Assembly (NCBI GenBank): GCA_016182015.1
Contig: JACOYC010000010.1
Location: 1 to 58,368 of the forward strand
Length of the DNA: 58,368 bases
Direction: 5' to 3'
From: Nanobdellati archaeon
Lineage (GTDB): Archaea > Nanobdellota > Nanobdellia > UBA10117
Numbering within the stretch: position 1 is the stretch's first letter; every line of letters starts with the position of its first letter. Under the pieces are notes generated by a model, which ran no database searches, had not been told where the DNA came from, and saw only the letters and a program-made list of their open reading frames with translations. Made by a program: the position numbers and the translations under genes. Positions 7,097 to 40,824 of this stretch are shown piece by piece.

Positions 7097-7537
7097 ATGT
7101 TCGCTTTGGCTTTGTTGGAGATGGAATTTATCAAACGCATATTGATGGGTGTAAAGACAAGGATACAGCGGGCCACTACCTGGCTCTCACTGTTTAATTC
7201 TGCCATGATATTTTTTCTGTTTCTGTCGCGGCTTAACGATGCTGGCTATAACATCCGCGTAGGCCAGTGGTTTCTTCCGCTTTTGGTTATTGGCGCGCTT
7301 GGCCTTGCGCTTATCGGCTGGATCGAAGACCGAATGGGGTTCTGGCGGCTGGAGCTTAAGATGATAGGGGAGCGCAGTCCTTACTTTAAGGATATTATGC
7401 ACAAGCTTTCAAGAATTGAGAAGAAGCTTGGAATAGAAAGTGAAAACAACATGTCGGTCGTTGGTCATAAGTCGTTAGTTGTTGCGCCAGACGACAAACA
7501 ACAATCAACCCCCGGACAGCAAACAGACATAAAATGA
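7097..7537 (+). CDS. membrane protein, unknown function
   Basis: Two predicted TM helices. ATGA overlap with the next gene. Confidence 0.5.
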   Translation: MFALALLEMEFIKRILMGVKTRIQRATTWLSLFNSAMIFFLFLSRLNDAGYNIRVGQWFLPLLVIGALGLALIGWIEDRMGFWRLELKMIGERSPYFKDIMHKLSRIEKKLGIESENNMSVVGHKSLVVAPDDKQQSTPGQQTDIK

Positions 7538-8127
7538 CATCCTACAAACATATTCTTGGCACTGTAAACACTGCGCGAAACCCTGAATTTGAAAACAAAA
7601 AGAACAGCCAGCAGGCCTGCGCGGAGATTCTGAACTACGGGCAGGCAAGCTCTGTCCTGGATTACGGGGCAGGCCCGATGGACATTAAAAAGAAGGGCTG
7701 GCTTAATGACAGTATAATATACGTGCCATACGATCCGGACACAAAGAGGGAGGGCGCAGTTCGCAGGCTGCCAGACGGACAATTCGACTGGATAATTTGC
7801 AATCAGGTTGTCGAGCACCTCACTTTAAAGGAAATTGAAGAGTTTCTGGACTACTGTGCAAAACATACAAAGAACATAGTAATATCTACCCCAAACATAA
7901 ATCACCTGAATTGGTATGACTTTCACACGCAAATAACACACATCACGCCGCTGTACTGGCGGCATTTTGCATCCTTTGTTGAGAGCCACGGGTTTTCTGT
8001 TGATAAAATAATATTTGCGATGCCCTTCAGGAACCCGCTAAAAAAACTTTTGTGCAGGCTTTTCGGGAGCTTCCCCTATAATGAGTATTTGATTGTTGCG
8101 AAAAAGAGAGAAAAGATAACTATATAA
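7534..8127 (+). CDS. class I SAM-dependent methyltransferase
   Basis: Motif I-like VLDYGAGPMD, followed by DWIICNQVVEHL, typical of the Methyltransf_11/23 type. Confidence 0.6.
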   Translation: MTSYKHILGTVNTARNPEFENKKNSQQACAEILNYGQASSVLDYGAGPMDIKKKGWLNDSIIYVPYDPDTKREGAVRRLPDGQFDWIICNQVVEHLTLKEIEEFLDYCAKHTKNIVISTPNINHLNWYDFHTQITHITPLYWRHFASFVESHGFSVDKIIFAMPFRNPLKKLLCRLFGSFPYNEYLIVAKKREKITI

Positions 8128-8193
8128 TATTATATATTTTTATATAACTGATTTTAAAAAAACAACTAAAAATATTAAAAAAAATAAAAAGAA

Positions 8194-8326
8194 GTGGCTA
8201 AATTACCACTTTCTCTTCTTTCAGCCGCAAAATCGGCTGGCGCTTTGGTTGCATTTGGCTTTTGCCAAACGCAACAGCGCAAGTGAATACTAAAGCTTCT
8301 GTGGCTTTTACCACTTTCTCTTCTTT
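8194..8326. repeat. direct duplication of the surface-protein gene 3' end flanking a hairpin insert
   Basis: TTACCACTTTCTCTTCTTT at 8203-8221 and 8308-8326, each preceded by GTGGCT. Insert hairpins include CAGCCG..CGGCTG and TTTGGC-TTTT-GCCAAA. Confidence 0.85.
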
Positions 8327-11300
8327 TTCATTGCTGCACCGATTGCGATAACCACTACAATCACAACTAACAGTAACGCCCACATTGTTGTGTTTGTTGT
8401 TGGCTTTGTCGGGCCTACCGCTTGCGTGCCGCCAGCTGAAGGTGTTGCGGTGCCTGCTGCTCCGCCGGCTGCTGTTTCGCCGCCGGCTGCTGTAGCAGCT
8501 GCTGCCTTCTCACCAGATATTGCAAATGTGCTAAAGCCTGGTGTTGTTGCTTTGTATGTTACCTGCGTGTCTGTCTCACTTACAAATGCTGTCGGCAGCG
8601 CATCCCATGTGCCAGTGTACCTCAGCAGCTTTACCGAGCCTTTTACAACATTATTCTCTGTCAGCCAGCTCTTATCGACATTGAACGTTATCTTTGCATC
8701 ACTTACCAACTGGTTGTTTGTCAACCCGCTTGCCTTGATTTCAAGCAGCTTGTACACTTCACCTGATGGCGAGCTGGTGCCTGCTGGTACTTCACCAATC
8801 TTTTCAACAGTTAATTTAACGTTGTTTAGGTTTGCGTCTGGCGTAAAGGTTATTTCGGATACAGCAACTGCCGGCGCTGTAAATTCTGTCTTTGCCTCAG
8901 TATTTGCAGTTATCGATGACAAGATTGCGGATTGCGATGTCTGGCCTTCACCTGCTGCAAGGCCTGCGCCTCCTGCGCCGCCTGATGAGCCGCCGCCGGC
9001 TGTGGAAGTTGTTCCGCCGCCAGCTACATTAGCGCCCCTCAGGCCAAGTCCGCCGCCAGTGAAGTGCTGCAACCTTACCCATATCATCTTTTCAGTTGTG
9101 TTGAGCAGGCAGGCAGTGCCCCTTGCTCCGGTATCGTTGGTGCATATTACTCCGCCAGCTCCATCAGTGCCGTTGCTAATCATGCTTATGTTCCAATCTG
9201 CGAATGGCGTGGTGTTGAATGCCGCGCTATTCTGGAGCGGCGTGCCATTTACAGATACATTCCACACAACATTCCAGTTCTGGTCATAGAGCACTGGTAT
9301 CGTCAGGTTGACGGGTTCACGGTCATCTATGCTGTTATCCTCGCCAGACGTTGTGGAATACGGTATACCTACAAAGACCTCTTCATAGTTCTTTGGCGCC
9401 AGGCTGCCTACTCTAAATATCCTGTTGGCGTTAGCAGTTGAAGACAAATCCTGCGGCAGCAAGTCTGGCTGCACATCTGGCATGCCGCTTGCTACCATGT
9501 CCACGCCGCTGAAGTGTATGTTGATGCCGTTTGATGTCCTTAATCTTATGCTAAGCCTGTCGCCGTAACGCATTGCTGCGAATGGGTTTATGTCGCGGAT
9601 TGTTGAACCTGATGCCAAGACACAGCCGTTTGTCGCCAGGCTTGTTATTGTATTACAAGTCACATTGTGCGACATGAACTGGAACCTTATCTGCTCAAGG
9701 CCTGCCCCTGATGTTGTGCCCCTGTGTTCAGTGCCTGCCGGCCCTGGCCTGCTTGCCCTAAACTCTGTCATTGTCAGGTTGATTGATGCGTTAGTTGCAT
9801 GGTTGTCTGCTGTTATTAGGAACTCCCTTGGCGCATAGCCCGGTGTGTAAACCCGTACCTTCGCGCTTTCGTTCGCGAAGAATGGGAATGCAGCAAGGCC
9901 TGATGCATCGGTTTCTACCATAAACCTTACCTTAATCAGTCTTGGCTGGACGCCAGTCTGCGTGTTATTTGTATTTAGTTCAATGTCAAGGAAGCTTGAG
10001 CCCGCGATTGTTGCGTTGCTTGTTCCGCTCACAACCTGCAGGAGCGTCTGGGACGCATTTACTGGCAGGCTGTTTGTACCATTACCCAAGAAGCTCCATT
10101 CCGGCGTTAATGCATTAGTCGGTGTAGCTATGCCCCTTAACGTAAAGTTAATGCCGAATACATTTGCAGTGCCGACTGTAACATTTGTTATTCCAAGCAT
10201 CCTGTCTCCGCCAGTTCTGGTGGCATTTCCACCTGTCTTGTTGCCGCCGGATGCAAGCAATATCCAGCTTGAGCTTTGCGGCAGTGAGATGTTGTACGCG
10301 ACCGCGGAATAGTTTATCCCGCCGATTACTCTTGTCACGCCTGGCGCGGCTGCAAGCCTTGTAACCGGCACAGCGTTGCTGTCAGTCGGCCTTTGGTATG
10401 CCCGTACGAGCGCGAACTCGTTGCTTATATATGGGATTGCTGTTAAGTTAGTCACGTTATAGCCTGGGCTGCCAAATGCAAGCGAGTTGCCTGATGCGTT
10501 TGTCGGCACAAAGATGTAGCCAGACACGTTTACATAATATGTCGTGAAGTTCATTGTCACGCCGACAACATAGGTTGGCGAGGCCAAAGACCTTGCAGTC
10601 AGGTTTATGGAGCTATTTGACGCAGGGTTAATTATGTCTACCGCCCTTGGAGGAGATTCGCCAGTCATGCTGTAAAATACAATTGTATAGTTTCTGTCCA
10701 ACGGGAGCACCTCTGCTGCTATCTGGCCAGCGGCCATTCCTACTGAAGCACCGCCAGCAACGCCCGCAGTTTTATTGTGTGTTGACTGTGGCGAGCTGTA
10801 GATAACAGTTGTGTTGGTTGCGTTGTTTGTTGTTTTCAAATATGTGATTGGTACGCCCTTTGACTTATCAAATATTATATATGCAAATGCTGTGCCTTGT
10901 GTATTATTCTTTAAGGCCGTGCCGTTATGAGCTGCGCTGAAGTTAAGGCGAATGTCATTTGTAAAGCTTGTTCCGTTGTTAGTGGAGAAAATATCCCACA
11001 AACTTGCACTTCCGTTTCCAGCTGTATTACTTAGGGCATTGCCAGTCGGATCTGTGCCGTTCATTGCACTGGCCGTTCCATTTGGCCATACATATGTCAA
11101 GTTTCCGATAACAGTATCGTTGAACGCTATCATGTATATATTTAGTGCTGGCACAAGCCTGAGGGTCTGGCCTTCAAGGAAGGAGAGCCATGCGGCCTTT
11201 GTCAGTGCTGGCAGGTATGGGTTGACATAGTTTACATAACCGCCCTGCCTATTAGTTCCATCACCAACAACTCGTAAACTATAAAGTGCAGTTGCACTGT

Positions 11301-11559
11301 CTGTTGCAATTGTAATATTTGCCAAAGAAGAATTTGTCTGGTTTATTCCGTCCTGGAATGTTCCAAATGATCCATTAAGACTGGCAGCATTTGGCGGAGA
11401 CTCGAGGTATATTGTTGCATTCGCAAAATTAACATTAGTTCCGTTTGGATATGCTACTGTAAAATTTAAATTCCAAACTGCGCTCGCTGGCAGGACTGCC
11501 AACGCGAAAAGAACAAACACTGCGGTTGCTATTACTAATGCTTTATTAAAATTAGCCAT
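8308..11559 (-). CDS. large surface (S-layer-like) glycoprotein with PGF-pre-PGF-like domain and C-terminal TM anchor
   Basis: Signal peptide and 1083 aa densely packed with N-x-S/T. C-terminal ...TTPGFSTFAISGEK... is followed by an Ala/Gly linker, a TM helix and a KKKRKW tail. Confidence 0.8.
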   Translation of the reverse strand: MANFNKALVIATAVFVLFALAVLPASAVWNLNFTVAYPNGTNVNFANATIYLESPPNAASLNGSFGTFQDGINQTNSSLANITIATDSATALYSLRVVGDGTNRQGGYVNYVNPYLPALTKAAWLSFLEGQTLRLVPALNIYMIAFNDTVIGNLTYVWPNGTASAMNGTDPTGNALSNTAGNGSASLWDIFSTNNGTSFTNDIRLNFSAAHNGTALKNNTQGTAFAYIIFDKSKGVPITYLKTTNNATNTTVIYSSPQSTHNKTAGVAGGASVGMAAGQIAAEVLPLDRNYTIVFYSMTGESPPRAVDIINPASNSSINLTARSLASPTYVVGVTMNFTTYYVNVSGYIFVPTNASGNSLAFGSPGYNVTNLTAIPYISNEFALVRAYQRPTDSNAVPVTRLAAAPGVTRVIGGINYSAVAYNISLPQSSSWILLASGGNKTGGNATRTGGDRMLGITNVTVGTANVFGINFTLRGIATPTNALTPEWSFLGNGTNSLPVNASQTLLQVVSGTSNATIAGSSFLDIELNTNNTQTGVQPRLIKVRFMVETDASGLAAFPFFANESAKVRVYTPGYAPREFLITADNHATNASINLTMTEFRASRPGPAGTEHRGTTSGAGLEQIRFQFMSHNVTCNTITSLATNGCVLASGSTIRDINPFAAMRYGDRLSIRLRTSNGINIHFSGVDMVASGMPDVQPDLLPQDLSSTANANRIFRVGSLAPKNYEEVFVGIPYSTTSGEDNSIDDREPVNLTIPVLYDQNWNVVWNVSVNGTPLQNSAAFNTTPFADWNISMISNGTDGAGGVICTNDTGARGTACLLNTTEKMIWVRLQHFTGGGLGLRGANVAGGGTTSTAGGGSSGGAGGAGLAAGEGQTSQSAILSSITANTEAKTEFTAPAVAVSEITFTPDANLNNVKLTVEKIGEVPAGTSSPSGEVYKLLEIKASGLTNNQLVSDAKITFNVDKSWLTENNVVKGSVKLLRYTGTWDALPTAFVSETDTQVTYKATTPGFSTFAISGEKAAAATAAGGETAAGGAAGTATPSAGGTQAVGPTKPTTNTTMWALLLVVIVVVIAIGAAMKKKRKW

Positions 11560-40680: not shown

Positions 40681-40824
40681 GAAAAAATCCGCAAAACTCC
40701 GCCCTTTAGGGCGCGGGATACGCGGATTTTTCCATTCAGCCAAAATTCGTTTTGGCTGACCAGTCGAACTTTGTTCGAACTGTTCCTCAAAATCGCGGTT
40801 AAGCGAGCAGCGATTTTGAGTTAT
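40681..40824 (-). repeat. mosaic hairpin element, copy D (inverted relative to E/F)
   Basis: Its reverse complement shares ATAACTCAAAATCGCTGCTCGC, GTTCGAACAAAGTTCGACTGGTCAGCCAAAA..TTTTGGCTGAATGGAAAAAT with copy E. The last 4 nt overlap the ccdA stop codon. Confidence 0.85.

Follow-up and report, generated by a model that had tools for sequence, protein, structure and literature searches.

A two-hairpin element between duplicated copies of a surface-protein gene end in a Nanobdellati archaeon

Introduction

Among the described systems closest to the locus studied here are the REP/BIME (REPIN-RAYT) sequences and the small palindromic intergenic repeats of bacteria, which have been reviewed (PMC3184786, PMC3733652). 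The insertion sequences IS1634 and IS1549 are flanked by direct repeats of 8 to 514 bp, which are variable in length and for which the mechanism is unexplained (PMC2266710). In Archaea, bulge-helix-bulge introns of tRNA genes include the "transposed" introns of Thermoproteales (PMC4090602), and a tRNA-fragment model has been presented for Caldiarchaeum by Sugahara et al. (PMC3293823). Selfish palindromic repeats have also been reported in the organelles of Volvox (PMC2670323).

In this study, we analysed an 86-nt insert at the end of a surface-protein gene in a Nanobdellati archaeon (assembly GCA_016182015.1). The window is the whole stretch of DNA that was analysed, 58,368 nucleotides of contig JACOYC010000010.1, and positions given without a contig name refer to it. 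In the literature, no account of such elements in DPANN or Woesearchaeota was found. SINEs and LINEs provide a further point of comparison: their target-primed reverse transcription leaves one sharp end, one variable end, variable target duplications and an orientation bias relative to transcription.

Results

The insert is located in the 180-nt space separating two convergent genes, the surface-protein gene and a methyltransferase-like gene. The features of the locus are as follows.

7534..8127, plus strand: convergent neighbour gene, weakly methyltransferase-like
8177..8199, minus strand: GCCAC arm and oligo-T tract T5AT8 (GTGGCT on the plus strand at 8194-8199; T5AT8 at 8177-8190)
8203..8221, minus strand: orphan copy (copy 1) of the 19-bp direct repeat, KKRKW-stop, from the sequence and from comparison with the empty site of genome G007
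8222..8239, plus strand: module M1, hairpin CAGCCG-CAAAAT-CGGCTG, precise 5' end of the element, abutting copy 1
8240..8280, plus strand: module M2, conserved linker GCGCTTTGG and imperfect long hairpin
8281..8307, plus strand: 27-nt tail from the second hairpin to copy 2, containing GTGGCT at 8301-8306
8308..8326, minus strand: gene-proximal copy (copy 2) of the 19-bp direct repeat, the true gene end
8308..11559, minus strand: surface (S-layer-like) glycoprotein gene, 1083 aa, ending ...MKKKRKW*, from the ORF and its translation

The 1083-aa protein has many N-x-S/T sites, and its C-terminal part includes a membrane helix and a basic tail with KKRKW* as the last residues. Its profile match to the PGF-pre-PGF domain (TIGR04213 PGF_pre_PGF, E = 2e-33) is to a domain typical of archaeal surface glycoproteins, and the product of the gene is probably the major surface protein of the cell. 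A GTG-started ORF of 61 codons at 8198-8383 on the minus strand crosses the insert in another frame and is most likely spurious.

The first-pass annotation had reported that the last 19 bp of this gene occur twice with GTGGCT beside each copy, and that the duplicated block takes in the stop codon and sequence beyond it. Both statements were confirmed. In the 761,113-bp genome (31 contigs), the 19-mer TTACCACTTTCTCTTCTTT has only two occurrences, 8203-8221 and 8308-8326. Copy 2 reads AAAGAAGAGAAAGTGGTAA on the gene strand, which represents the last codons and the TAA stop, and is the true end of the ORF. On the gene strand, TTTAGCCAC and an oligo-T tract come after the orphan copy. GTGGCT lies 3 nt before copy 1 (8194-8199) and 1 nt before copy 2 (8301-8306), and its GTGG pairs with CCAC inside the repeat in both copies.

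The insert between the copies is 86 nt long (8222-8307) and consists of a hairpin, an imperfect long stem and the 27-nt tail, with no ORF. It begins with CAGCCGCA... and finishes with ...TGTGGCTT, two termini between which no inverted repeat was found. The last base of copy 1 is 8221 and the first base of M1 is 8222; the repeat stops exactly at the start of the element. The M2 hairpin is GTTGCATTTGGC-TTTT-GCCAAACGCAAC with closing pairs GCGC..GCGC. The first-pass annotation had described an insert of about 80 bp that folds into hairpins, and strong folding was confirmed: on the gene strand, the RNA fold of the region has -51.3 kcal/mol (z = -7.1 against shuffles), and the DNA fold has -29 kcal/mol (z = -6.2 against shuffles). 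Rfam gave no match in the window at gathering thresholds, with sub-threshold noise only at 8100-8400. Between this genome (G000) and the orthologous site of a congener (G002), the M2 stem shows a compensatory change from GGC/GCC to GAC/GTC, indicating that the structure is maintained. The tail at 8281..8307 has no further copy in the genome and is homologous to the tail of the G002 ortholog; it may be a diverged second copy of the hairpin region that follows the stop codon.

Positions 8222-8280 fit the definition of an M1-M2 family. In this definition, M1 is NNNCCG-CNAAAT-CGGNNN (the CCGCNAAATCGG hairpin core with a complementary three-pair outer stem), and M2 is the linker RCGCTTT(GG) directly after M1, followed by a hairpin of variable sequence. 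A genome-wide search for the modules of the insert, as suggested by the first-pass annotation, was performed with BLAST and patterns and found 10 M1-M2 copies in G000, the linker following the M1 core in 10/10. Among the 39 genomes of the order, 8 carry the family at 1-10 copies each, and a reversed control pattern gave 0 matches. An exact-pattern scan of species-representative genomes placed archaeal copies in Woese-, Iain-, Micr- and Altiarchaeota and in one Thermoplasmata MAG, and many of these copies are introns inside tRNA genes in several phyla. The elements measure about 60-110 nt. The outer letters of the first hairpin vary among family copies, and in 41 archaeal copies, with 9 triplet-pair variants, the outer three base pairs are complementary at 123/123 positions; loop and linker are constant. 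Six bacterial pattern matches were rejected as chance, with the outer stem pairing at only 0-2 of 3 positions. These results demonstrate that the insert is a member of a defined cross-phylum two-hairpin family.

The CAGCC..GGCTG stem had also been related to modules of mosaic elements at 40737 and 45008, and this kinship was not upheld. Those modules constitute a family of their own with four loci, in which CAGCCAAAA-loop-TTTTGGCTG precedes ACCAGTCGAAC...; the neighbouring module is another one, and BLAST gives no similarity to the present insert.

The first-pass annotation had regarded the locus as a further instance, the third locally, of a recurrent architecture, in which a gene end is duplicated around a hairpin insert. 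This was supported by the repeat pairs found across the genome. At spacings of 30-450 bp, 27 direct repeats scoring at least 19 are present in the real genome and none above 16 in a codon-shuffled genome, indicating that the repeat does not arise by chance. Among pairs scoring at least 17 at 40-300 bp spacing genome-wide, 23/30 enclose a perfect stem of at least 7 bp, compared with 13% of random segments; pairs without such a stem are mostly coding repeats or a template/variable pair of a diversity-generating retroelement (DGR). A flanking direct repeat scoring at least 12 was found at 14/38 archaeal M1-M2 copies with enough flank for the comparison, as against 0.6% of control windows. In 11/14 repeat-flanked copies the repeat ends within two bases of the first base of M1. 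Among these cases are the present locus and copies in Iainarchaeota, in Altiarchaeota and in the Thermoplasmata MAG, and beyond the present locus there are ten copies in four lineages with a repeat ending at the M1 start. By our reading, all stand-alone M1-M2 copies in G000 (8/8) are flanked by repeats of 15-40 bp. The other hairpin families of G000 showed the same flanking-repeat behaviour.

Across loci, the repeats are 14 to 53 bp long and the layout is constant: in the orientation of the element, a flank, copy 1, the element starting with a perfect hairpin, a variable tail of 8-70 nt and copy 2. The repeat is pyrimidine-rich on the element-sense strand (69% of the last 10 nt; 25 loci above one-half and 3 below, p = 3e-5). 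At about 16/23 loci, the present one included, a gene running antisense to the element has its 3' end in the tail-side repeat. This bias indicates that the usual product is gene, stop, tail, M2, M1 and orphan gene end. A BLAST search of the genome for donors of the unique tails, with the terminal 45 nt of 23 inserts as queries, matched only the shared hairpin modules and never the tails.

We compared the locus among related genomes, which are MAGs of 68-92% completeness: the congeners G001 and G002 of G000, and G007 from another genus of the same family. Comparison of orthologous loci, likewise suggested by the first-pass annotation, gave one filled and one empty site. G002, which was assembled independently from groundwater and differs from G000 by about 16% in sequence, has the same order of gene end, tail, element and orphan copy. 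In G007, the gene end (AAGAAGTGGTATTAA) is followed by a GTGG..CCAC hairpin and a T-run without an insert. The filled G002 site indicates that insertion at the present locus predates the split between G000 and G002. The order at the G007 empty site, and the GCCAC and T5AT8 that follow the orphan copy, make the orphan copy (8203..8221) the apparent original gene end with its terminator; on sequence grounds it is probably the former gene end. The surface-protein gene is likely to have had its original archaeal terminator in the GCCAC arm and T5AT8, which now lie on the downstream side of the insert. Since the T5AT8 tract adjoins the orphan copy and not the hairpins of the element, the insert is placed upstream of this likely terminator.

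The same comparison addressed whether the layout could be an assembly artefact or a recurring conserved bidirectional terminator motif. The genome is a metagenome-assembled draft of 31 contigs with ends overlapping by 99 bases, which speaks for an artefact. However, the k-mer apparently used for assembly is much longer than 19 bp, so that a repeat of this length cannot have caused a mis-join, and the independent G002 assembly has the same layout in spite of about 16% divergence. A terminator motif common to unrelated loci, an objection that the first-pass annotation had raised against itself, is refuted by the restriction of the 19-mer to two sites, the shared layout in G002 and the empty site in G007. 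We consider artefact or motif extremely improbable.

The interval between the surface-protein and methyltransferase-like genes differs between the two filled genomes: about 576 bp in G002 (L002:2298-2873) and 102 bp in G000 (window 8106-8207). The G002 interval contains an apparent extra ORF on the opposite strand. The difference suggests that the region downstream of the orphan copy was rearranged after the G000/G002 split.

Precise empty sites were also found elsewhere (loci in G000 are given by contig and position). The target is single-copy in congeners at C22:26931, and a congener has a single-copy target and precise empty site at C25:1563 and at C21:6523. At C30:21877, the congener site is empty and the locus looks like a plain insertion with a 25-bp duplication. 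At C2:2273, the rps14/rps8 junction, the empty genomes have overlapping TAATG stop/start codons. These filled and empty sites in congeners indicate that the elements are mobile on the timescale of species in a genus and that insertion is accompanied by target duplication.

A search for mobilising enzymes gave no match in the genome for Y1_Tnp/RAYT (PF01797; control genomes positive), DDE_Tnp_1 (PF01609) or TnpB-type proteins, and Cas1 was not found in the five most element-rich genomes. The only tyrosine recombinase in the genome is of XerA type. The reverse transcriptase domain RVT_1 is present in 2/39 genomes of the order, G000 included, and was not found in G001, G002, G007 and G014, incomplete MAGs that carry 3-8 element copies each. 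As reverse transcriptase is lacking in most element carriers, it does not co-occur with the element. G000 has two paralogous reverse-transcriptase genes of 345 and 366 aa (C26:5322-6785 and C17:4486-5523). One of them has a 69-nt repeat pair beside it, with A in one copy replaced by G or another base in the other, the template/variable signature of DGRs. Both genes are probably of DGR type, a reading based on this pair with A-specific differences adjoining one of them.

The two repeat copies resemble each other within genomes. At the present locus, both G000 copies contain AAAGTGG and both G002 copies AAGGT(A/T)C. At C25:1563, a T-to-C change occurs in both G000 copies, and at C16:10926 the gene-side copy of G000 has the orphan-type sequence while G002 keeps two different copies. 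This matching of copies indicates gene conversion between them. Since the insertion predates the split of the congeners and the copies evolve in concert, perfect identity of the repeat is not a sign of youth; a perfect repeat at an insertion older than about 16% divergence is why conversion is invoked as a second process.

At other loci, the two sides of the element have diverged, and here the main rival explanation applies. The locus would then be a recombination scar: an element-bearing allele of a diverged relative would have entered by a homologous crossover together with an illegitimate joint at the terminal hairpin. The route may have been homology-facilitated illegitimate recombination or template switching, or else a mini-circle of Campbell type with a replacement gene end on it. 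The tail would be the donor 3' UTR, and the perfect repeat would be recipient sequence present twice. Such a scar explains the loci with diverged tails. At C5 (aIF5B), the first 40 codons are duplicated, and the two copies show 18 synonymous and 3 non-synonymous codon differences. At C10, the orphan C-terminus differs by conservative substitutions only, and the orphan side is 96% identical to G002 compared with 68% for the intact gene side. At C22:26931, the copy-1 flank is nearly identical to the empty G002 site and the tail is diverged. At rps14/rps8, the element and adjacent spacer are about 93% identical between G000 and G007 by our count, compared with 74% for the regional BLAST match, which suggests lateral transfer at an orthologous site. 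Homology past the perfect repeat is one-sided, between left flank and tail only and never on the other side (Mann-Whitney p = 0.004), and the tail at the present locus keeps a GCCAC hairpin arm like the orphan side. However, tail-flank homology is undetectable at about 16/22 loci, the similarity at the present locus is weak (4 score points past the repeat), and C30:21877 is a clean insertion with its 25-bp duplication. A scar also needs an element already at the same locus in the donor and leaves spread to new loci unexplained, and a Campbell crossover of diverged partners would leave no perfect repeat. We therefore regard a scar as rather unlikely for the present locus. Some loci nevertheless show input from diverged lineages; recombination with relatives through the duplicated gene ends can give such patterns.

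Two other accounts of the diverged loci were rejected. A Campbell-type crossover of diverged partners was judged unable to give a perfect repeat beside a diverged segment. In-situ duplication with neutral decay was set aside for C5, C10 and C22:26931, where the diverged parts are protein-constrained or younger than the divergence they show.

The rps14/rps8 junction is composite. G000 (C2:2273-2582) and G007 (locus L046) each have two hairpin elements there, the rps14 end is duplicated separately in the two genomes (51 and 33 bp), and G001 and G002 have the overlapping TAATG.

A local replication error was also considered, in which stalling at a hairpin, with slippage or ligation of an unprocessed flap, would duplicate the gene end in tandem and template switching would supply the filler from elsewhere, without a true mobile element. 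The duplicated blocks hold the hairpin arms GTGG..CCAC, the rps14/rps8 junction of G000, like that of G007, resembles a tandemly duplicated unit composed of gene end, spacer and element, and no transposase was found, all in keeping with such an error. On the other hand, the filler is not locally templated but belongs to a family conserved across phyla, in which the 5' end is precise and loop and linker are constant, the same family occurs in tRNA introns, and random slippage does not predict the orientation bias (25 versus 3 loci). We judge this origin highly unlikely.

Several further arrangements were observed in G000. At C31:1893-2029 and C5:7850-8112, a gene start is duplicated and the orphan start codon opens a frame through the element; the stop codon of this frame directly abuts (TAAATG) or overlaps (ATGA) the real start codon, as though the coupling of translation had been kept. 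At C28:2913-3260, a gene-end segment occurs three times with two different hairpin elements between the copies, which on its sequence is an array from repeated insertion at the same gene end. At C25:1584-1798, G002 (locus L078) has a plain M1-M2 element, and G000 has in addition a module nested in the M1 loop and three more hairpins; the nested joints are without long duplications. A 328-nt block at C20:6024-6351 is missing from G001, G002 and G007 and comprises an ORF of about 60 codons, one repeat copy and a hairpin element; the small gene may have arrived with the element.

Discussion

The analysis demonstrates that the insert belongs to the family, that its 5' boundary is precise, that orthologous sites occur both filled and empty, that the target is duplicated at several loci and that the usual transposase genes are lacking. 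On this basis, we consider it reasonably probable that the insert is a mobile non-autonomous two-hairpin element, inserted by host functions with a long, variable target duplication and later modified by gene conversion and recombination. Before G000 and G002 split, M1-M2 with a variable unique tail would have entered the gene at its last codons and terminator, by insertion of DNA. The duplicated target would comprise at least 19 bp and probably about 26-45 bp, reaching from the last five codons through the stop into the first part of the terminator hairpin. Insertion may have been carried out by host replication or repair, through widely staggered nicks that were filled in or through template switching at a hairpin. 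The copy adjoining the gene body is now the gene end, with the orphan copy still ahead of the GCCAC arm and oligo-T tract. Gene conversion would keep the repeat copies alike, and recombination with diverged relatives could replace one side.

Host functions are favoured by the absence of the usual transposases and by the failure of reverse transcriptase to co-occur with the element; this is an argument from absence, made on MAGs that are 68-92% complete. A cut-and-paste step is countered by the lack of terminal inverted repeats and by the ill-defined 3' end with its unique tail. The diverged, protein-constrained tails at C5 (aIF5B) and C10 count against plain target duplication as the whole account. 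We also considered a specific transposase-free route, in which the defined end of the element would be a 3'-terminal hairpin of RNA or DNA: host polymerases would copy transcripts or DNA strands that terminate in the M1 hairpin into nicked, purine-rich gene ends. This route is decidedly speculative, and we think it improbable. If true, it would give SINE-like variable target duplications and variable tails, and landings in tRNA genes would be new archaeal introns. On this view, one mechanism across DPANN and Altiarchaeota would account for both the duplication of gene ends and the gain of tRNA introns.

These genomes are smaller than 1 Mb and have almost no recognisable mobile-element genes, yet G000 contains about 200 small repeat loci, with hairpin elements in the inspected subset. 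The elements move between congeners and nest inside one another. They also become introns of tRNA genes, and they reshape essential genes at their ends while leaving these genes intact. The insertion route could reveal host-driven DNA insertion, and the gain of archaeal tRNA introns could become testable because filled and empty sites stand side by side in related genomes. At the present locus, the element would presumably be transcribed, giving the surface-protein mRNA a heavily structured 3' UTR.

With its precise end and its long and variable duplications, and without a cognate enzyme, the element falls outside any standard prokaryotic transposable-element class. It resembles REP/BIME in being a short GC-rich multicopy hairpin that lies at gene ends, forms mosaics, shows compensatory stem changes and likely acts as an RNA 3'-end structure. 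It differs in having no RAYT/Y1 and no GTAG/CGTC tag, in its long target duplications (REPs have none) and in also occurring as a tRNA intron. MITEs are comparable in behaviour but differ from it: terminal inverted repeats are lacking here, the duplications (14-53 bp) are neither fixed nor short, and Y1, DDE_Tnp_1 and TnpB gave no match. Casposon-derived elements, with Cas1, a 14-15 bp duplication and terminal inverted repeats, are distinguished by the absence of Cas1 from the five genomes, the variable duplication and the missing inverted repeats. Long target duplications that vary from copy to copy are shared with IS1634 and IS1549; those are kilobase-sized with a DDE transposase, whereas the present insert has 86 nt, no ORF and no PF01609 in its genome.

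The order of gene, core repeat, replacement end, element, core repeat and orphan native end is also that of integrative elements and prophages at gene 3' ends, and it is similar to that of the Caldiarchaeum tRNA-fragment model. However, the insert carries no integrase, is shorter than 250 bp and has a different core at every locus, so that one site-specific recombinase cannot serve all loci. The M1-M2 element is similar to SINE/LINE retroposition in its sharp and variable ends, variable duplications and orientation bias, but it has no A-tail and reverse transcriptase is absent from most carrier genomes. As with archaeal tRNA introns, the identical M1-M2 module is found inside tRNA genes of several phyla; in contrast to them, the present copy lies in the 3' UTR of a protein gene with a 19-bp duplication, and its minimum-energy fold is one of separate hairpins without a bulge-helix-bulge. 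The Volvox repeats belong to another domain of life and have other sequences, and long gene-end duplications are not described there, but they share with the present elements the spreading of hairpins without an encoded enzyme through a small genome, introns included.
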